Sequence record: OL656110.1
Strand: one strand, 5' to 3'
Origin: Escherichia phage vB_EcoM-RPN242
DNA length: 64,000 bases
Below, one piece after another: positions 6,893 to 29,470 of the stretch (the first letter of the stretch is position 1; every line of letters starts with the position of its first letter). The notes beneath the pieces were generated by a model, which worked only from the letters and a program-made list of their open reading frames with translations, had not been told where the DNA came from and did not search any database. Both the position numbers and the translations under genes were made by a program.

Positions 6893-7171
6893 TTACTTGC
6901 CGTTGGCAGCGTTCTTCAGACCTTCGCCCACTTTGAATTTCACAACGTTTTTCGCCGCGATCTGAATGGTCTGGCCGTTCAGAGGGTTGCGACCTTCACG
7001 CGCTTCTTGGTGTTTCACTTCGAACGCACCGAAGCCAACCAGCTGTACAGATGCGCCTGCAGCAACTGCAGTTTTAACACCGTCGATAAAGGATGCCACT
7101 ACTTTCTCCGCTTCGCCTTTGGTGATATTCTGGGTCGAAGCAATGTGGGCAACAAATTCAGTACGATTCAT
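6893..7171 (-). CDS. HU/IHF-family histone-like DNA-binding protein
   Basis: 92-aa ORF; NRTEFVAHIA...GRNPLNGQTIQIAAKNVVKFKVG matches the HU fold signature (RNP-G-T arm); SD GGAGA. Confidence 0.85.
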   Translation of the reverse strand: MNRTEFVAHIASTQNITKGEAEKVVASFIDGVKTAVAAGASVQLVGFGAFEVKHQEAREGRNPLNGQTIQIAAKNVVKFKVGEGLKNAANGK

Positions 7172-7264
7172 CTGGATTTCTCCGTTGGGTTAATGTTTAC
7201 TTTCATGTTCACTACAAGAGGACTACATCTTACCTAACAAAACATATTGAATAAAGCGAAATTA

Positions 7265-7513
7265 TTAGCCTTTCGCCACGTCTTCAGTCGTCATCGTGCC
7301 ATAACATCCACAGCGTTCACAAATCACTCTGACGCAAGGCTTAAAAGTCTGAATATTAGTCACAGGAACGTTCACCGCCTTTGAAGAAACTTGCATTTCG
7401 CGGACTTCAACCCGTTGTTCGGCCAGGCGCTCATCGTCCAAGAAGGTGATCGTCTTGTGAGAACAACGCATTGACGATTCACCAACCCAGATTATTGCCA
7501 TGTTGGGACTCAT
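7265..7513 (-). CDS. hypothetical small Cys-containing protein
   Basis: 82-aa ORF with strong SD GGAGGT; ATGA start/stop overlap with the upstream gene; C-terminal CERCGCYG. Confidence 0.55.
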   Translation of the reverse strand: MSPNMAIIWVGESSMRCSHKTITFLDDERLAEQRVEVREMQVSSKAVNVPVTNIQTFKPCVRVICERCGCYGTMTTEDVAKG

Positions 7514-7788
7514 GATTTGACCTCCGATTTGGAGATTAACGATTCCATCTCCTGACGACCAATGACAGTCTCAACTTTGTCTTCTTCAACCATCATTTCA
7601 TTCAGAAGATCGTACCCCAGGACTTGTACACCAAAAGACTTTTTGTTCAGTTCTGCCTCAATATTGAGAACTCGCTGAACCGTCAGGCCACCGGAAGAGA
7701 ACGGTACTGGATAGAAGGCGGAACGCACTTGGACACACCCATTTACGCTGTAACGAACCAGCAAGACATCACACCATACGCCAGCCAT
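7510..7788 (-). CDS. hypothetical protein
   Basis: 92-aa ORF with SD GGAGGTG upstream of ATG 7788. Confidence 0.5.
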   Translation of the reverse strand: MAGVWCDVLLVRYSVNGCVQVRSAFYPVPFSSGGLTVQRVLNIEAELNKKSFGVQVLGYDLLNEMMVEEDKVETVIGRQEMESLISKSEVKS

Positions 7789-7789
7789 G

Positions 7790-8452
7790 TCACACCTCCA
7801 CCGCGTGAGACTTCAGGAGTTCATCAATCTCTTTCTGCCCCATGTATGAGAACGGGGTGCGCTGGTAGAACGCCCAGAGTACTAACTGGACAACAGCACG
7901 GGAACGGGTTTCGGCCGTCATCACCAGGCCACTGAAATGAGGAGACTCAGCTGTCCATTGTATCTCTTCGCCCAGGTCTTGATTACAGGTCACCGAGATG
8001 CGGAACTTGTTGCACAGATTGTCGACTTCTTTGTACGCATCGGTAGACACACGAAGTTGTTCCGAATGTGCCCACGGAGTTGTGACGATTCTTTCACCCA
8101 TCACTTTATCAGAGATAAACCAATCAATACATTCGGTAAACTCACTAAAATGGTCTATACGATAAATGCAGTCTCCCCCTTCCATAGAACGCATGGCATG
8201 ATAGCGAGAGTCGATTTCGTTGTTGTGCATCGCGTTGAAGTCGATGAACACGCGACGCGCCAGCACAACGTCTTCTGGTTGAAGTGCCAGGAAATCGTTC
8301 AGGCGGCTATAATGGAGGATATTGGAACCGTCGTGGCCACGTGTGCAATATGCGTAATAGCTACCGATACGGGCGTGGGCAATATAAGACAACGGGGCGA
8401 AGAATAATCCGTCAGGATCAGGACCGACGATAATAGAATAAAGTTTTTCCAT
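7790..8452 (-). CDS. hypothetical protein
   Basis: 220-aa ORF from the first in-frame ATG (track ORF begins at an upstream TTG); tight packing with neighbours. Confidence 0.55.
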   Translation of the reverse strand: MEKLYSIIVGPDPDGLFFAPLSYIAHARIGSYYAYCTRGHDGSNILHYSRLNDFLALQPEDVVLARRVFIDFNAMHNNEIDSRYHAMRSMEGGDCIYRIDHFSEFTECIDWFISDKVMGERIVTTPWAHSEQLRVSTDAYKEVDNLCNKFRISVTCNQDLGEEIQWTAESPHFSGLVMTAETRSRAVVQLVLWAFYQRTPFSYMGQKEIDELLKSHAVEV

Positions 8453-8508
8453 GATATAGTCACTCAAATGAAAGGGCAGCTTTATGATAAGCCGCCCGAG
8501 GTTATTGA

Positions 8509-9375
8509 TTATTGGAAATCGCCAACATACATATTCAGCTTGTCGTCCCAGTTCAGAACGACACGGATCGTTCCAGTATCTTCTGGGAAGGTCAGTTTGT
8601 CACACATGGCGCGATTAACATAAGTCCCGCTCTGGTTGACGTTGTAGTCCTTGCCTTGCATGATACCAAAACGCTTGAAGTCGCGAGTGACCATCATGTT
8701 CAGAGTTGTCCAAGGGATTGCATCGCGCAGGGCTTTGCACAGGACGATCTTGCCATCCGACCTGAACGACACAAACAGCTCGTTGGCGACACGACGGCGA
8801 GTAGGCGGTTCAAGTTCACGCAGGGAAATGAATTGTGAATTCTTTACCTTTTCTGCCAGCGCCTGTACTTCTGCTGGATCCGGCTTGAACGGCTCCACTG
8901 AAGAGTCAGACTTCATCACAACGTCACCCTTGCGCTTCTCGACCAATTGCTCCACAGCCTTTTGACTCACGGGCGGGAGGTATTTGGACTTAGGAACAAC
9001 CGCTGGCTTGATGACAGGGCTTGCATCTGGTTTCGCCTTTGGGGTACTCCGAGCCGCACGCAGCTTTTCCTGGGCTTCCAGAATGCGCTCTTGACGAGAA
9101 AGCGGAGCCTTTGGGGTGATCTTCGTACTGAAGTCAGAAACGCCGACCCAGTCACCCTGGTCATTACGCTTGGCCACCAGAGTCAGTTTGTGGATGATAC
9201 CCTGAAGTTTGCTCTCACGTAAGTTGTCGGCATACCAGAACTTCGCGCCCATCTCGAACTTCTCGGCGAAGATCACGCGAGCGTCTTCGTGTACCAACAT
9301 AACTTTGGCTGCGTTGGGGGCAAAAGCCTTATTCTTTTCGATAATCGCCGCAGCGATTGTTTTGGTCAGGAGCAT
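8509..9375 (-). CDS. hypothetical protein with Pro/Lys-rich linker
   Basis: 288-aa ORF; SD AAGGAA upstream of ATG 9375; two globular halves joined by a PKAKPDASPVIKPAVVPK linker. Confidence 0.55.
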   Translation of the reverse strand: MLLTKTIAAAIIEKNKAFAPNAAKVMLVHEDARVIFAEKFEMGAKFWYADNLRESKLQGIIHKLTLVAKRNDQGDWVGVSDFSTKITPKAPLSRQERILEAQEKLRAARSTPKAKPDASPVIKPAVVPKSKYLPPVSQKAVEQLVEKRKGDVVMKSDSSVEPFKPDPAEVQALAEKVKNSQFISLRELEPPTRRRVANELFVSFRSDGKIVLCKALRDAIPWTTLNMMVTRDFKRFGIMQGKDYNVNQSGTYVNRAMCDKLTFPEDTGTIRVVLNWDDKLNMYVGDFQ

Positions 9376-9414
9376 CACAGTGTATTCCTTCAGTTCACAA
9401 TGTAGGGCTAAATT

Positions 9415-9741
9415 TTAACCCGAAACTTTATTTTGAAATCCGACAAAGTCCTGGGCAATCCCCCGGCAATACATCAGGTCTTTCTTCGTTTGTGGACTGT
9501 TGTCAGCCGCAGTCAGCATCATGGGAAGGTCCAGCGCATTCTCTATCTGATCAACACTGAACAGATCAAGGCGCTTCAGCTCTCCCTCGAAGTCAGACAG
9601 TAGGATAGATGTGTCTTTGTCATCTGGGTGGAACTGCTGATACGTCTCCATCCATGCCACACATGTGTTCAGTTTGGACGGCGGCGCAGCGTTTACACAC
9701 CCGGCTATCAGTACCATCAAGAGCAGGATTTTACATTTCAT
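9415..9741 (-). CDS. putative lipoprotein
   Basis: N-terminus MKCKILLLMVLIAGC is a signal peptide with lipobox LIAGC; SD AAGGAGA; start overlaps the upstream stop. Confidence 0.6.
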   Translation of the reverse strand: MKCKILLLMVLIAGCVNAAPPSKLNTCVAWMETYQQFHPDDKDTSILLSDFEGELKRLDLFSVDQIENALDLPMMLTAADNSPQTKKDLMYCRGIAQDFVGFQNKVSG

Positions 9742-10427
9742 CACTCGTTCTCCTTCATCATATTGTCGCAGTCAACACGAGTCTGCTGAAGTTCGCGCGA
9801 CATGCGAGGATCATCAAGGTTCACGCTCAGATTCGTGGCCAGGTCTTTCAGACCGTTCTGAACCCTGTCTTCAAAGTAATAATCGTTCTCAACCAGCCAG
9901 GCTCTGAGACCAAGAGCGCGGGTGCGCCATTCCTTCTTCAGGACGCGATCAGAGGTCTGCGTAGCGCTGTATTCGAATACTTTGATGCACTGGTTGCCAT
10001 CGTTGATAAGGTTCAGGTGGCGGCGACCAACCTGCACACCCTTCTGTAATGCCGGAGAAGGGAGCGAACGGCACTGTCTTACGGTCATTCGGCCTTGGGT
10101 GCCCATTCGGCCAGTCATGATCAAATCGCCAGCCTCCATGCCTCCACGGTTAAATTCGTCGTCATTGAGGTAGCCTTTGAGGTTATAGGCTCCCTGTTTG
10201 TAACGGTTGAACTCAATTCCGGCATTGACGACAGCAGTGGAGACGTTGCCTGTGTTCCAGAGTTCAGCGAAGTTCTCTATGGAACCAGACTTGTCGATGG
10301 CAACCGCCTGGGAGAACCCAGCACAATAGGAAAGGTCGGACCACAGTTTATCACCTGTGGAGTTCAGCTTGGCAGCGGCGGGTAATGCCAGACCAGCCAG
10401 CACAACCCCGAGGATTAAACGTTTCAT
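9741..10427 (-). CDS. secreted protein (signal peptide)
   Basis: Start trimmed to MKRLILGVVLAGLALPAAA (Sec signal, AAA-K cleavage site) with SD AAGGAGA; 228 aa. Confidence 0.6.
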   Translation of the reverse strand: MKRLILGVVLAGLALPAAAKLNSTGDKLWSDLSYCAGFSQAVAIDKSGSIENFAELWNTGNVSTAVVNAGIEFNRYKQGAYNLKGYLNDDEFNRGGMEAGDLIMTGRMGTQGRMTVRQCRSLPSPALQKGVQVGRRHLNLINDGNQCIKVFEYSATQTSDRVLKKEWRTRALGLRAWLVENDYYFEDRVQNGLKDLATNLSVNLDDPRMSRELQQTRVDCDNMMKENE

Positions 10428-10506
10428 GGCGATTCTCCTTATTTCATTGGATGAAATGATAGGCGGCTCACCATGATGAGTAAAGGGTTTCAATAAACTA
10501 TCGTAT

Positions 10507-10956
10507 TCAGAAACGGGTATCGCTGACCGTTCTGTATCGCACACCCTGAAACTGTTTAGCGAGTTTAACAAATTCCATCGCTGGCAAATCAACTTTGTAG
10601 ACCTTCATGCGCTGTTTGCCATCCATGTTCAACGCAGCGACAAATCGGTGAGAACCGTCAATAACGTAATTGTCAGAAGACACCCAAACTCGACCCATAG
10701 GTTTCTTATTTCTGATCTGCTTCATAATCTTCCAGACCTTCATTTTATTGATTTCGTTCTGGGTGAGACGAAGCATTTTGATGGGCACTTGCACAGCATC
10801 TATGGACACGCCGTTGTCTTCAAGATATTTGTGAAAATCTTCTTGTTTGTCGGCATCGATTTGTGGCATAGAAGAACGAGAAAGCCCGAGGTTCCCAACA
10901 GGAATCCTCAGGCCGTTAATGATGTTCAACCAGTCAATAAAGGATGTAAGGAACAT
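10507..10956 (-). CDS. ParB/Srx-like nuclease-domain protein (tentative)
   Basis: 149-aa ORF with VIDGSHRFVAA resembling the ParB N-terminal domain core; SD GAGGTG. Confidence 0.45.
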   Translation of the reverse strand: MFLTSFIDWLNIINGLRIPVGNLGLSRSSMPQIDADKQEDFHKYLEDNGVSIDAVQVPIKMLRLTQNEINKMKVWKIMKQIRNKKPMGRVWVSSDNYVIDGSHRFVAALNMDGKQRMKVYKVDLPAMEFVKLAKQFQGVRYRTVSDTRF

Positions 10957-10988
10957 GACACACCTCGGGATATAGGGTTATCCCTTAG

Positions 10989-11147
10989 TTAGCGCATCCA
11001 TCGATCCTTTCTCTCTTTCTCCTTGCGTTCGCGACGTTTCTGGTCGGATCGTAATAACCAATAGAAGAAGTTCCCACCCAAGATGAAAACCACCGCGATT
11101 ATTACTAGGACACCCTTCACAATTTCCCAAACCAATTCTTTATCCAA
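10989..11147 (-). CDS. small membrane protein (TTG start, tentative)
   Basis: No in-frame ATG. A TTG sits after SD GAGGTG; hydrophobic helix VLVIIAVVFILGG followed by a basic tail. Confidence 0.3.
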   Translation of the reverse strand: MDKELVWEIVKGVLVIIAVVFILGGNFFYWLLRSDQKRRERKEKERKDRWMR

Positions 11148-11148
11148 A

Positions 11149-11436
11149 TTACACCTCGTCTTCTTCAGGTCCACCGTCAATCAGGATACGAGCGGTGTCG
11201 AAAGTTTCCCCGCCCGTGTTCAGCAGCTTGGTCAGATCGTCAAGATATCGGACCGTACCAAGATCAGATGACCGCGATATAAACTCCAGCATGCCATACA
11301 ACGCTGTTTGGAATCGGCTGTTATCGATATCGTTCTTTATTACCATCAGGCGCAAGATGTTCTCTGACTGAGTATGGTCAACACACGCCTTGTCTCTGAT
11401 CATCTCCTTGATAGAACTTCTCTCTGATGGTGTCAT
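11149..11436 (-). CDS. hypothetical protein
   Basis: 95-aa ORF; SD GGGGGT; ATGA overlap with the upstream gene. Confidence 0.5.
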   Translation of the reverse strand: MTPSERSSIKEMIRDKACVDHTQSENILRLMVIKNDIDNSRFQTALYGMLEFISRSSDLGTVRYLDDLTKLLNTGGETFDTARILIDGGPEEDEV

Positions 11437-11807
11437 AACGTACCCCCGACAGAGATCAAGAACTCTTCTTGCATGGTCTTGACCGGGTGGTGGTTGCGGG
11501 TTTCGAACATGAAGCCCCAGCCACCGTCGGCGACGTTGCCAAAGGTCTTGACGCCAAAGGACTTCGTCCCGTTAGAGCAGGAATAGATGTCCAGGACGTA
11601 TGGGCTACCCTGATTGTCGATCCCACGATTCACGTCGTCTGATACGCAGCGCTCAATCATCTTCCCGTTCTTATACAGAACGAGGTCTTGGCCATACGCC
11701 TTGAAAGCATAAACACCGTTGGTAGACACTCCGGTGATGACAGGAGGGGCGGAAACAGCAGCAAAGGAAGCGCCCAGCAGAGCAACAGCGAGGATTAACT
11801 TTTTCAT
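11433..11807 (-). CDS. secreted protein (signal peptide)
   Basis: Start trimmed to MKKLILAVALLGASFAAVSA (Sec signal); SD AAGAGA. Confidence 0.6.
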   Translation of the reverse strand: MKKLILAVALLGASFAAVSAPPVITGVSTNGVYAFKAYGQDLVLYKNGKMIERCVSDDVNRGIDNQGSPYVLDIYSCSNGTKSFGVKTFGNVADGGWGFMFETRNHHPVKTMQEEFLISVGGTL

Positions 11808-11866
11808 GATATAGTCTCTTGGTTTCAAATGGGCGGGGTAATCATACCCCGCCCAAAGTTATAGAA

Positions 11867-12106
11867 TTAACTGATGTGCTTCAGAAGAGCGAAGAGGATC
11901 GCGGCCTTGGCCTTTACCTTTCCCACGATGCCTGTCTCGACATCAACTTCTTCAGCAACCCACTCTTTGCCTTTCTTGCTGATGATCACGTCACGGCGCT
12001 GTGCGTAGACTTCTTTGGTCGCATACACACGACGGAACCCTTTAGCGCGGAGCAATCCCCAATTACGATCAATTTCTACTGAGGTTTCTACCATTTTGTT
12101 CTTCAT
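11867..12106 (-). CDS. hypothetical protein
   Basis: 79-aa ORF followed by a hairpin at 11831-11854. Confidence 0.5.
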   Translation of the reverse strand: MKNKMVETSVEIDRNWGLLRAKGFRRVYATKEVYAQRRDVIISKKGKEWVAEEVDVETGIVGKVKAKAAILFALLKHIS

Positions 12107-12190
12107 GATATAATCTTACCTTTCAACCCGGTGAACCCATCGTTCGCCAGTTATTGAATAATAGGACATTCCTTAGAGGAAGTAAACCCC

Positions 12191-12222
12191 TAAAAGTAAA
12201 AATCCCCAACGTTTGTTGGGGA
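12191..12222 (-). terminator. intrinsic terminator after ACP-like gene
   Basis: Hairpin TCCCCAAC-gttt-GTTGGGGA followed on the minus strand by TTTTTACTTTT. Confidence 0.6.
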
Positions 12223-12594: not shown

Positions 12595-14796
12595 TTAGAT
12601 TTTGATTTCTTTCTCTGTCAGTTCGGCAGTGACCTTGTACTTCACGCCATCCACTTCAACTTCCATGGTGGACTCTTCCAGGTCGAGGTCGGTGAACCAG
12701 CCGTGGCCAGCAACGATACCATACACCACTTTAGACAGTGTCTTGTTCAGGGCACGGACTTCGGTGATGGCCGCCTTGGCAGCAGCGTCGATCCAGTTTT
12801 CGATCAGCTGTTTCTGTAAGGCTTCAGGCACGGCAGTGATCATAGGAGACTTCACGAATGCTTCGTACTCTTTCAGAGCATTGGCGATGAACAAGTCACC
12901 AGCATTGAGTTTCTTGTTCTCTGCGATCTTCTTCTGTACTGCCGCGATGCTCGGTAGTGAAGACGCCCCGGCGATCTTCACGTTCAGCTCACGGCTCATG
13001 TAGAAGTCGGTAGACTCTTTGGTCTCAGTCTTCGGTGAGAAGCCGTAATCGCGGATGCCGTAGGAGGACAGGAACTCGGCCGCCTCAGCGCCGTACTGTA
13101 CTGCCAGGCCTTTGGCGTTACCCTTACCAACCAGGGCGTCTCGATAGAACTTCAGCACCTTCTGCTTGCCTTTCAGGGCTTCCAGACGGACATTATCCGC
13201 AAAGAACTGAGCAGCACTGATGTTCTTGACCATGGCGCGGTTGACCAGCGGTACGCTTTCCAGGTTCAGGACAAACACTTCCGGACCACCAAACACGTGG
13301 ACGCCCATTTCGATCAGCTTCTGTACAACTTCGATATCAGCCTTGAACGGCAGAGTCTTCACGTTAATGATACCGTCTTTGACGATGGTGTAGTTGCGCC
13401 ACTGGAAAGTATCCAGTTCTTCAGGCAGGCCAAACTTCTTCTGTGCGAATTCAGGCACAGCCACAGTACCGTGTTGAATTGTACGCACACTGATGTTCGG
13501 GCGCTCGGAGTTATAGACCAAATCACTGATTGGCACAACACCCAGATCGTTGGTAGGTTCGAACGTCGGGTTCCACTCTTCGTGCTCTGCCAGCTTGAGA
13601 GCCAGGGCTTTACGCTCTTCTTTGGACTGAGCATTCGCGATCTGTTCTGCCAGCTTGTCTTCGGTGTCGTCGGTTTTCTGCACAGTACCGCGCCCGATGC
13701 TCTTGTAGGAGAACATCGGATGCTTGGTAGCAACAGGCACACCAGCTTCAGCCAGGTACGTCAGAACATCAACGACGGTCGTCGCATCTTCGGCCGGAAC
13801 CAGGTCATAGTCAATACCGTCAACGCCGCGCAGCTGGTCATCAACGATGGCCTGGGTCAGATCGTTCTTGATGTTGGAGTAGTCCTGCTTGGTGAAGCAG
13901 TTGCTGTACTGTTTGATGAAGCGAACGTCGCCCGTCTTCTTCAGCGCAGCCCAAACCAGATCTGCGTCCATAGTGTGTACGCCGTAGAACGCCAGCACGT
14001 ATGCCGCCTGGATGTCCGCCAGGCTATCCATCTGGTCGATCATGTTAGGGTTTACAACCCACAGCTTGGTGACGCTCTCAGGGATGCTCACGTGGCCGAT
14101 AGGATGGTCTTCATCCGGCTGTACCGCCAGAACAGTTGCTACGCCGTTTTCAACATAGATAGCGTGGGTGTATAGCAGAGGCACATCAACAACCACCTTC
14201 GGTACTGATGACTTCAGCACGTTTTCCAGTTCGGTCTGGTATTCGGTCTGACCTTCGGCAAACACGTGAGTAGCACCAGAGCGTTCGGCCATCTGCGTCA
14301 GCAGTTCACGGTTACAGTGCCAGCCGTATTCGATAAATGTAATGTTATCGAAAGCAAATGGCAGGGTCTCAGCAACCAGTAGAATTTCGTTGGTACGCCA
14401 GCAGTTGTCATACCCGTCAGTCATGAACGCCAGGTTGTTGACGTAGCCAGGTTTCTTCAGGTCACGCGCAGTATCCATCGCCAGTTTCAATGGCTCAACG
14501 AATCCAGTACATCCGGACGGTTGCAGGAAGCGATCGATCAGTTTGTTCAGCTCGCTCAGGTCAGACGCAGCACCAACCTGGCGGCCAGCGAACACAGTGC
14601 CAAAGTCGCCTTTGGATGAGAAGTATAGAACACTTACAGTGTCTTCCGGTTTCACCAGGGAAGGCAGGTTCTCCTTCAGGTGCTTGCGGACTTCAGGAAG
14701 CGCACGGTACATAGAGCCGGAAATGTCTACAACGATTACATGGTTGGACGGAGCAGCAGTCGCAACCGCATTCTTAAATTCTAATGATTCAATCAT
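12595..14796 (-). CDS. von Willebrand factor A (vWA) domain protein, 733 aa
   Basis: N-terminal MIDAS motif VIVVDISGSM (DxSxS) followed by about 550 aa of unassigned sequence. Start taken at the ATG with an AAGAGA RBS (track start is further upstream). Confidence 0.7.
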   Translation of the reverse strand: MIESLEFKNAVATAAPSNHVIVVDISGSMYRALPEVRKHLKENLPSLVKPEDTVSVLYFSSKGDFGTVFAGRQVGAASDLSELNKLIDRFLQPSGCTGFVEPLKLAMDTARDLKKPGYVNNLAFMTDGYDNCWRTNEILLVAETLPFAFDNITFIEYGWHCNRELLTQMAERSGATHVFAEGQTEYQTELENVLKSSVPKVVVDVPLLYTHAIYVENGVATVLAVQPDEDHPIGHVSIPESVTKLWVVNPNMIDQMDSLADIQAAYVLAFYGVHTMDADLVWAALKKTGDVRFIKQYSNCFTKQDYSNIKNDLTQAIVDDQLRGVDGIDYDLVPAEDATTVVDVLTYLAEAGVPVATKHPMFSYKSIGRGTVQKTDDTEDKLAEQIANAQSKEERKALALKLAEHEEWNPTFEPTNDLGVVPISDLVYNSERPNISVRTIQHGTVAVPEFAQKKFGLPEELDTFQWRNYTIVKDGIINVKTLPFKADIEVVQKLIEMGVHVFGGPEVFVLNLESVPLVNRAMVKNISAAQFFADNVRLEALKGKQKVLKFYRDALVGKGNAKGLAVQYGAEAAEFLSSYGIRDYGFSPKTETKESTDFYMSRELNVKIAGASSLPSIAAVQKKIAENKKLNAGDLFIANALKEYEAFVKSPMITAVPEALQKQLIENWIDAAAKAAITEVRALNKTLSKVVYGIVAGHGWFTDLDLEESTMEVEVDGVKYKVTAELTEKEIKI

Positions 14797-15004
14797 TGTT
14801 CTCTTCGCCTTGTGCGTAAGGGTTAAGTTCAGACTCATCAGCGGCTTCGATGCGCGTCTTTACAGAGTCCAGCATATTGTTGATAAACTCACGAGACTGC
14901 TCCAGCTGAGCCAAGAGCACATCCTTTGGAGCATAGTTCTGAATGCAAGCCGGAATACTTTCAGACGTCGCCTTCAGGTCGGTAAAACATTCTTTCAGTA
15001 TCAT
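14789..15004 (-). CDS. hypothetical protein
   Basis: 71-aa ORF; its end overlaps the vWA gene start by 8 nt; weak SD. Confidence 0.45.
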   Translation of the reverse strand: MILKECFTDLKATSESIPACIQNYAPKDVLLAQLEQSREFINNMLDSVKTRIEAADESELNPYAQGEENND

Positions 15005-28791: not shown

Positions 28792-29062
28792 AATAGCACC
28801 TTTGCTGTGGAGATATTTTGTGACCCTGATGCGCGGGATCAGTAGATTGTTGTTGGCATGCTCGATGCTCTTGTTTACGAGCTGTCGCATCTTTGTCACG
28901 CCAATAATTTCTGTTTCCGAACTCTGGAACCCAGAAGTGCGCACTGTACCTGTGACGTTGTCGGCCAGCGTTCCCACTTGTAACAAGGGTATGCTGGACA
29001 TCATCGTGCAAGAGTTCCAGCCCTTCCAGAAGCTCGTACCTTTAGGTTGCTTTGATGAGAAC

Positions 29063-29470
29063 ATGAGCACCCTCAAGCCATACTGGAAGACCACAATTCC
29101 TCTCCTGCGGCATGGCGATGAAGGGAAGATTCCATACCTATCAGCAAGTATTTATTACTCTCAGAACAACAGCATCATTATCACTTTTAATCCATCATTC
29201 CATGCCAAGCTGAAGCAACACATGGTTGGGCGACTGGATACAACATCAGATATAATCGTGACGTTCAAGATCATGAATGACTCGGATAAACCAGTACGAA
29301 TCGCAACTCAGGGTGTGTTCGTTAACAACGACGCGGTTGGAAATGGGATGAGTATCTTTGAAGTTAACCCAGGGGGAACGATCTTGATCAGACTGAGTAA
29401 TGTGGGTGTGAACTCCCTGCTGTTGGATGGCATCGAACCAGTGGGAGTTCTTCCGGCGCGGGAGCACTGA
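29063..29470 (+). CDS. hypothetical protein (plus strand inside the late module, tentative)
   Basis: A 375-nt stretch is open on plus with no convincing minus-strand alternative; weak RBS. Confidence 0.35.
   Translation: MSTLKPYWKTTIPLLRHGDEGKIPYLSASIYYSQNNSIIITFNPSFHAKLKQHMVGRLDTTSDIIVTFKIMNDSDKPVRIATQGVFVNNDAVGNGMSIFEVNPGGTILIRLSNVGVNSLLLDGIEPVGVLPAREH

Follow-up and report, generated by a model that had tools for sequence, protein, structure and literature searches.

Within the 64,000 nucleotides of Escherichia phage vB_EcoM-RPN242 analyzed here (OL656110.1; this whole 64-kb stretch is referred to as the window), six genes designated A to F occupy positions 9415-11807, all on the minus strand, flanked on one side by the genes for the replicative helicase and a DNA-binding protein and on the other by acyl carrier protein and vWA-domain genes. 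The locus raises the question of whether the exported proteins and the ParB/sulfiredoxin (ParB/Srx) protein encoded in these 2.4 kb belong to one system, and of what they do. A first-pass annotation had described here a lipoprotein (lipobox LIAGC), two Sec-signal proteins, a small membrane protein and a ParB/Srx-like domain protein, and all of these are indeed present, on the minus strand, with coordinates and motifs as described: the lipoprotein is F, which carries LIAG/C with Val at +2 (a slash marks the cleavage site), the Sec-signal proteins are E and A, the small membrane protein is C, with 52 amino acids (aa) and one hydrophobic segment, and the ParB/Srx-like protein is D, which has an invariant DGSHR motif and a structural model with a predicted local distance difference test score (pLDDT) of 82.

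The explanation that we favor, tentatively and at somewhat less than an even chance, is that the 2.4 kb are a mosaic accessory stretch within a region of replication genes, holding at least two unrelated functions; this grading applies jointly to the whole explanation, in which D would be a virion-borne effector and E/F a periplasmic module comparable to Spackle of phage T4. The doubt cast on the spanin label of E/F comes from the present tests, D as a virion protein and E/F as an annotated pair being already known. The value of the analysis lies in corrected annotation and in sharper testable hypotheses; its novelty is modest, and none of these hypotheses is established here.

10507-10956, minus strand: gene D, 149-aa stand-alone ParB/Srx-fold protein
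9741-10427, minus strand: gene E, 228-aa putatively exported protein with four Cys
9415-9741, minus strand: gene F, 108-aa putatively exported protein with lipobox LIAG/C and TGATG overlap with E

Mosaic organization of the A-F cluster

Nucleotide comparison puts region 9000-12200 at 98% identity with Escherichia phages PC3, PH4, ZQ1 and AV101 and at 92% with Maynard and Marshall, two Salmonella phages, and in all 278 phage records match, almost all from Ackermannviridae (ViI-like); by these matches the window is part of a ViI-like (Ackermannviridae) phage genome. Orthologues were compared across 26 related loci from IMG/VR together with annotated records. Scans of all six proteins against Pfam and NCBIfam gave no significant match.

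The A-F cluster is not a single functional unit, because A and C come and go, D occurs without E/F and endonuclease genes insert between D and E. Indeed, A and C are found in some relatives and are lost or replaced in others, the replacements including DenV and an ADP-ribosylase, and D without E/F is encountered in Vibrio and Aeromonas relatives. Genes for HNH homing endonucleases of about 290-306 aa are inserted in the D-E gap in two loci (L013, 5450-6380; L018, 5450-6374), and in CBA120 a 120-aa remnant of an HNH homing endonuclease lies between D and E (76157-76529). In the window, D is closer to the Kuttervirus type (98% identity) than to the Marshall type (83%). The reverse holds for E and F, which show 99-100% identity with the Marshall type and 94% (E) and 70% (F) with the Kuttervirus type. 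Judged by these identities, the window is a recombinant across the D-E gap (10428-10506), with a Kuttervirus-like D and Marshall-like E/F.

Export signals and structure of E and F

A crude signal-peptide scan of the window left four exported proteins as genuine, namely F, E, A and a lipoprotein encoded at 28820-29470 (plus strand). Three of the four fall inside 9415-11807, and the statistical weight of this clustering is only modest, since E and F, whose genes are translationally coupled by a 1-nucleotide (nt) TGATG overlap, count as one. Both E and F are predicted to bear Sec-type signal peptides, apparently of the cleavable type in E; this prediction draws on our own heuristics, on the AXA cleavage sites of orthologues and on the GenBank record of LIMEstone1, where a SignalP run by its authors assigned signal peptides to both orthologues.

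The N-terminus of F, MKCKILLLMVLIAG/CVNA/AP, reads in two ways, either as a valid lipobox (LIAG/C) or as a signal-peptidase-I site (CVNA/AP). The lipobox is found in 3 of the 21 distinct F orthologues, in the window type alone (LIAG/C or LMAG/C). The other types, namely Kuttervirus, Taipeivirus-like, Limestonevirus, 3M-like and Bue1-like, end in VVA/TP, VLA/AP, ALA/VP, VHA/AP, AYA/AP, AQA/AG or ASA/QP, which are plain signal-peptidase-I sites and align with CVNA/AP of the window. The same partition is seen in the phage records that contain an F homologue: 233 out of 281 have identities in the range of the non-lipobox types and at most about 30 are of the lipobox type, and several of the 233 are still labelled 'putative lipoprotein', 'i-spanin' or 'Rz-like spanin'. 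The mature part of F is conserved, with C27 and C92 being invariant, and conserved Cys pairs are a feature of E and F alike.

The N-terminus of E, MKRLILGVVLAGLALPAAA/KL, is hydrophobic over 16 residues, Gly and Pro among them, and ends in PAAA/K. Relatives of E are confined to Ackermannviridae, and the short ones (123-176 aa; Bue1, Serratia 3M and metagenomic) have the sites ANA/G, VHA/R and AHA/A and are without the entire C-terminal half of the protein. Structure prediction, proposed in the first-pass annotation as a check, gave a ParB/Srx fold for D; for E it is confident only at about residues 21-130, which form a compact five-helix bundle (pLDDT 70-87). Sequence-profile searches of E and F against PDB returned no significant match.

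Do E and F constitute a spanin?

In Marshall, E is annotated as an i-spanin and F as an o-spanin, and the pair was entered by Kongari et al. 2018 as a 'separated' two-component spanin. According to this reading E would remain uncleaved and anchored in the inner membrane, F would be an outer-membrane lipoprotein, and their complex would fuse the two membranes as the final step of lysis. The order of the genes and their 1-nt TGATG coupling are compatible with it, as are the valid lipobox of the window F, with Val at +2, and the presence of Cys in both proteins. The name 'Rz-like spanin' of PHROG 3843 also speaks for it, but this family is the same orthologue group as F and hence not an independent label.

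A spanin has to be anchored in the inner membrane and, by lipid, in the outer one; the E/F family as a whole appears to have neither kind of anchor, which weakens the reading. The lipoprotein signal is present in the window F, yet it is missing in 18 of the 21 distinct F orthologues, including the CBA120, LIMEstone1, Taipeivirus-like, 3M and Bue1 types. In E, an uncleaved N-terminal transmembrane anchor is not predicted either: the Gly/Pro-containing hydrophobic stretch with its PAAA/K end, the corresponding sites of the homologues and the SignalP calls on record for the LIMEstone1 orthologues all point to cleavage. Furthermore, the short E homologues dispense with the C-terminal half, E, as far as it is modelled, folds into a helical bundle and not an extended coiled coil, and a sigma-70-like promoter match lies directly upstream of E. 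No match to the curated spanin families of Pfam and NCBIfam was obtained at E<=0.1. In fact, the Marshall pair is an outlier in the tables of Kongari et al. 2018, where its 'i-spanin' has no coiled coils and 35% helix and its 'o-spanin' 56% helix.

Some observations weigh on the opposite side. According to the LIMEstone1 record, COILS gives a coiled coil for the E orthologue, and the C-terminal half of E is poorly modelled (pLDDT <50). The main point in favor of a spanin is that CBA120 offers no alternative candidate: in all frames of its complete genome no unimolecular or embedded spanin was found, and only two of its lipobox open reading frames (ORFs) are credible in having a ribosome-binding site and agreeing with an annotated gene. 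One of these encodes an SPFH-type lipoprotein; the other is orf170, whose product is without a transmembrane segment at the C-terminus. Rejecting E/F consequently leaves outer-membrane disruption unexplained. The endolysin gene is about 20 kb distant from the A-F region in relatives, and the T4 spanin genes also stand apart from the other T4 lysis genes. Taken together, the sequence features argue that E/F are probably not the spanin of this phage and that the existing annotation is weak, the spanin reading being the least probable of those considered here and distinctly unlikely.

The plus-strand lipoprotein at 28820-29470 is the orthologue of CBA120 orf170. It is conserved, with about 206-216 aa, a lipobox FTS/C and Arg at +2, and its gene is oriented opposite to the neighboring genes. 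It was rejected as a unimolecular spanin, having no C-terminal membrane segment.

ViI-like phages are common candidates for therapy and biocontrol, and the labels 'Rz-like spanin' and 'i-spanin' have been copied to many of their records. If the label is wrong, the breach of the outer membrane by ViI-like phages needs a new explanation, and lysis inhibition gains two candidate genes.

Predicted transcription signals

12158-12186, minus strand: sigma-70-like promoter match TTTACT-N17-TATTAT, located before the 79-aa gene at the head of the cluster
10456-10484, minus strand: sigma-70-like promoter match TTTACT-N17-TATCAT, within the 80-nt spacer between D and E, which is conserved
11831-11854, minus strand: terminator-like GC-rich hairpin GGGCGGGGTA-tgat-TACCCCGCCC followed by ATTTG, just upstream of A, with a weak U-tract

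The pattern TTTACT-N16-18-TANNAT has two matches in the 64-kb window for 0.27 expected. The site equivalent to 12158-12186 is annotated in LIMEstone1 as 'putative early promoter', a terminator is annotated in the same phage at the place equivalent to the hairpin, and both hexamers of the D-E match are retained in Taipeivirus-like loci despite the divergence of the spacer. The conservation of TTTACT-N17-TATCAT before E suggests that E/F are transcribed by the host RNA polymerase. Weighing against this, the promoter calls are consensus matches only, and the assignment of the locus to an early region in the first-pass annotation is upheld to the extent that these matches go. The T4-type late promoter TATAAATA has two chance-level matches in the window, neither of them near the cluster, and nothing usable was found in the transcriptome literature on Ackermannviridae.

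Candidate functions of E and F

Our best guess for E/F, arrived at by analogy, is an early periplasmic two-protein module for superinfection exclusion, with lysis inhibition as a close second. Both proteins would be released into the periplasm, where the window F may stay lipid-anchored, and would form a disulfide-stabilized complex acting from within on the envelope at an early stage of infection. The effect would be a block of incoming phage like that of T4 Spackle (gp61.3), an early protein that inhibits the gp5 tail lysozyme in the periplasm: E/F would inhibit the tail-associated peptidoglycan hydrolase of superinfecting relatives. ViI-like phages do carry a gp5-like tail lysozyme. The first-pass annotation had suggested exclusion or defence evasion for the exported proteins; the former survives as this leading idea for E/F, whereas defence evasion suits D better, because its domain family occurs within DarB-like anti-restriction giants and its orthologues are virion-associated.

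The exclusion module has points against it. Comparison of the F and Spackle profiles with hhalign gave a probability of 13%, so that the likeness between the two is architectural and not one of homology; Spackle acts alone, whereas F is coupled to a seemingly obligate exported partner; and a fold search with the E model returned generic helical bundles only, with no RI-T entry among the matches listed.

The last result also touches the second candidate, in which E/F would be the periplasmic arm of the T4-like lysis inhibition that CBA120 shows at high multiplicity of infection, that is, an RI-like antiholin or sensor that detects superinfection and delays the holin. No holin/antiholin is known in ViI-like phages, rIIA and rIIB homologues are present, and E/F are, by prediction, conserved soluble periplasmic proteins of these phages. 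F is moreover small and predicted to be helical, resembling in this respect T4 RI. On the other hand, E/F have no Pfam match to the RI or holin-T families, no holin partner was identified, and RI has a signal-anchor-release domain where most F orthologues have ordinary cleavable signals. A paper on the 'T4-like lysis proteins' of KP1 matched the holin, antiholin and spanins with T4 structures; it contains nothing on the E/F pair and was set aside. On balance we consider this role unlikely, though less so than that of a spanin.

Inspection of T4-type Spackle genes (L037, 2759-3052; L038-L056) brought up a feature of Spackle itself: a lipobox-like A/S/V-S-C motif is present in all 18 distinct signal peptides sampled, seven residues ahead of the reported cleavage site, though Spackle is described as soluble and periplasmic.

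Gene D encodes a ParB/sulfiredoxin-fold protein

The AlphaFold model of D (mean pLDDT 82) has the ParB/Srx core fold. In it, a strand (97-100) and a helix (102-111) meet at the DGSHR motif (D100, G101, S102, H103, R104), which is invariant in 21 aligned sequences and corresponds to a Gly-x-x-Arg motif of the phosphate-binding type at a strand-helix junction. The other invariant motifs are PxGxL..R..MPQ (P19-G21-L23-R27-M30-P31-Q32), LxQNExNK (L64-Q66-N67-E68-N70-K71) and, as the fourth in order, R..S (R142-S145). Thus, the description of D as a 'ParB-like nuclease domain' protein is right as to the fold, 'nuclease' being a family label only.

It had also been stated that none of these proteins has a recognizable homologue, which is wrong for D, as it has thousands of relatives. 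There are 40 close homologues, several of them with the UniRef name 'ParB/Sulfiredoxin domain-containing protein', and a profile search of 1.84 billion representatives retrieved 4874 proteins at E<=1e-3, ranging from solo proteins of about 150 aa to 2359 aa. In agreement, a fold search of BFVD matched solo and multidomain phage ParB/Srx proteins, and among PHROGs a weak ParB match was obtained along with a strong match to positions 316-467 of a 740-column family. In Ralstonia phage Cimandef, tblastn located the domain within a giant protein that bears the annotation 'DarB-like antirestriction' and is encoded by a gene of about 13.6 kb that adjoins virion genes; this protein also has SLT, Eco57I-type methylase and helicase domains. 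Other relatives are fusions to Zeta-toxin/AAA_33 kinases or to cytidyltransferase-like domains. D itself gave no significant match in Pfam, including ParBc and helix-turn-helix (HTH) families, nor in sequence-profile searches of PDB.

A role as partition ParB of a ParABS system was rejected, D being a single 149-aa domain with neither HTH nor dimerization domain and no ParA gene nearby. Assignment to the DdrB-like ParB proteins was likewise dropped: hhalign against P1 DdrB gave a probability of 0.1%, and an iterated hidden Markov model built from 205 D-family domain sequences matched neither P1 DdrB nor DarB. Because these comparisons give no link to P1 DdrB/DarB, D is not filed in that clade; it appears to form a distinct one. 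What the two share is a pattern, the solo-to-giant distribution of the ParB domains of injected phage 'polyvalent proteins' (Iyer et al. 2017, PMC5512222), for which NTP (nucleoside triphosphate) sensing or a DNase role early in infection has been proposed (PMC5512222).

Association of D with the virion

The 450-bp D orthologue of LIMEstone1 is noted as 'confirmed structural protein' in the GenBank record (HE600015), and the LIMEstone1 paper (PMC3296691) lists a 17.31-kDa structural protein of no assigned function, detected with 35.6% coverage and 5 unique peptides; the calculated mass of the orthologue is 17.30 kDa. The numbering of this protein is off by one between Table 2 of the paper (ORF102) and the record (ORF101), and the equivalence was settled by the molecular mass and the 'confirmed structural protein' note. 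Also, Sajous1 gp192, which is 98% identical to D, was detected with 11 spectra in CsCl-purified virions. D is therefore an orthologue of virion proteins found in published proteomes, a known component whose role had not been assigned, and is likely to be packaged in the virion.

If so, D would be ejected together with the DNA and act at the very start of infection as a nucleotide-binding or -hydrolysing, possibly DNA-nicking, effector, a role modelled on that proposed for the ParB domains of injected polyvalent anti-defence proteins. The missing match of the D-family profile to P1 DdrB and DarB weighs against this model, as does the position of D among replication genes and not among structural ones. 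Also, both virion proteomes contain clear non-structural proteins (RegB, SSB, ligase), at lower levels, making carry-over possible. A different explanation would make D an enzyme that works inside the cell in DNA or nucleotide metabolism, as a kinase-like or NTPase representative of the ParB/Srx fold, and a contaminant of virion preparations; the nearby exported proteins would be unrelated morons. The non-structural proteins of both proteomes speak for it. The surroundings of D, with replication and nucleotide-metabolism genes, and its relatives with cytidylyltransferase-like or Zeta-toxin/AAA_33 kinase domains in the same protein or next to it would suit such an enzyme. Yet D was detected in two independent proteomes from different genera, and its 35.6% coverage with 5 peptides and its 11 spectra compare with less than 5% coverage and 1-5 spectra for the contaminants. 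Moreover, homologous domains occur within giant proteins that have a peptidoglycan-cutting SLT domain and are encoded beside virion genes. We regard the contaminating enzyme as a rather doubtful explanation.

An equally doubtful proposal would join both subjects: ViI-like phages would be without a canonical spanin, E/F would supply the periplasmic machinery so far missing for their T4-like lysis inhibition or for superinfection exclusion, and D would be a minimal virion-ejected ParB/Srx nucleotide switch. If true, D would represent, as a protein of its own, a module that elsewhere is embedded in giant anti-defence proteins that are injected. D is a small, tractable and soluble representative of a large, little-studied phage ParB/Srx family of thousands of members, which elsewhere are found within injected proteins of several thousand residues, and it could be used for learning what the domain does at the start of infection.

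Accessory genes A to C and the neighborhood of the cluster

11433-11807, minus strand: gene A, 124-aa putatively exported protein with two conserved Cys, PHROG 5474 (no function assigned)
11149-11436, minus strand: gene B, 95-aa cytoplasmic protein, PHROG 4458 (no function assigned), with ATGA overlap with A
10989-11147, minus strand: gene C, 52 aa, TTG start, one transmembrane segment

In the favored mosaic explanation, A (exported) and C (small membrane protein) would be dispensable accessory envelope proteins. Gene A is found in only some relatives. Its product begins with MKKLILAVALLGASFAAVSA/PP, the predicted cleavage site being AVSA/PP, in which the Pro at +1 (codon 11748-11750) disfavors cleavage, as it normally blocks signal peptidase I; Taipeivirus-like orthologues have AHA/D at this place. 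Judging from these residues, the window-type A may be membrane-tethered or cut elsewhere. Divergent copies of B stand before D in most of the enterobacterial relatives sampled. C has a short acidic N-terminus, a single hydrophobic segment and a basic, Lys/Arg-rich C-terminal tail; CBA120-type phages do not have it, and Taipeivirus-like loci encode a C-like small membrane protein of different sequence. The idea that C is the holin of a hidden lysis cassette was abandoned because CBA120 and loci L006, L011 and L021 are without it.

Beyond the cluster, the 747-aa vWA-domain protein (12595-14838, minus strand) has a LIMEstone1 orthologue that is a confirmed virion protein (6 peptides), and its orthologue in the Sajous1 virion proteome is represented by 1 spectrum; this protein and D are thus two non-canonical virion proteins bordering the accessory region. 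Beside the vWA gene of P46FS4 (L003, 26738-29253) are adjacent genes annotated as nicotinamide phosphoribosyltransferase and ribose-phosphate pyrophosphokinase, presumably resembling the phage NAD+ reconstitution pair, and LIMEstone1 has nadV at the equivalent position (L058, 8795 onward). Beyond the vWA gene of the window, the ORF list contains no ORFs of the size of the P46FS4 pair, the layout being CBA120-like. Just downstream of the E/F region, CBA120 (71987-74251), as well as Sajous1 and Bue1, encodes the SPFH-type lipoprotein and a gene labelled 'superinfection exclusion'. In the window, a lipobox scan of 6893-8467 found no SPFH-type lipoprotein, the ORFs there being of 92 aa (7510-7788) and 225 aa (7790-8467), and this segment appears as a variable hot spot of envelope genes.

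Comparison with known systems

Like the two-component spanins (lambda Rz/Rz1, T4 PseT.3/PseT.2), E/F are encoded by adjacent, translationally coupled genes distant from the endolysin gene, as in T4; the first product (E) has an N-terminal hydrophobic segment, the second (in the window F) a lipobox, and both have periplasmic Cys. Unlike in those spanins, most F orthologues have no lipobox, the N-terminus of E resembles a cleaved signal peptide, the modelled E is a compact bundle and not a coiled-coil rod, F is helical and not proline-rich, half of the protein is missing in short E homologues and no spanin family model is matched.

T4 Spackle shares with F a signal peptide, with a lipobox-like ASC in Spackle, and a small helical mature part (75 aa in Spackle). 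In both, one Cys, within a C-x-W context, closely follows the cleavage site and a second lies near the C-terminus; those of Spackle form the Cys29-Cys81 disulfide. Both are early-type genes among replication genes, in phages with a gp5-like tail lysozyme. They differ in that F is coupled to the exported protein E, and the lysozyme of the ViI-like gp5 is of another type than that of T4. As to the exclusion lipoproteins, T5 Llp and T1/phi80 Cor are, as F would be, small, exported, Cys-containing, early and envelope-acting, but they are obligate outer-membrane lipoproteins that block receptors, whereas F is predicted to be mostly unlipidated and is not known to have a link to a receptor.

With the DdrB-like ParB domains of polyvalent proteins, D has in common that these are phage-restricted ParB/Srx domains, found solo or in giant packaged and injected proteins, the difference being the lack of any profile match between the D family and P1 DdrB/DarB. 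Within the wider ParB/sulfiredoxin superfamily, which includes the ParB/Spo0J and KorB CTPases, PadC, sulfiredoxin, the SerK/SbnI kinases and Osa, D shares the alpha/beta core, the strand-Gly-x-x-Arg-helix motif (DGSHR in D) and an upstream acidic/amide motif (QNE in D). It is set apart from that superfamily by its 149 aa without HTH or dimerization domain, ParA partner or parS site, by the family-specific N-terminal motif PxGxLxxxRxxMPQ, and by its likely association with the virion.

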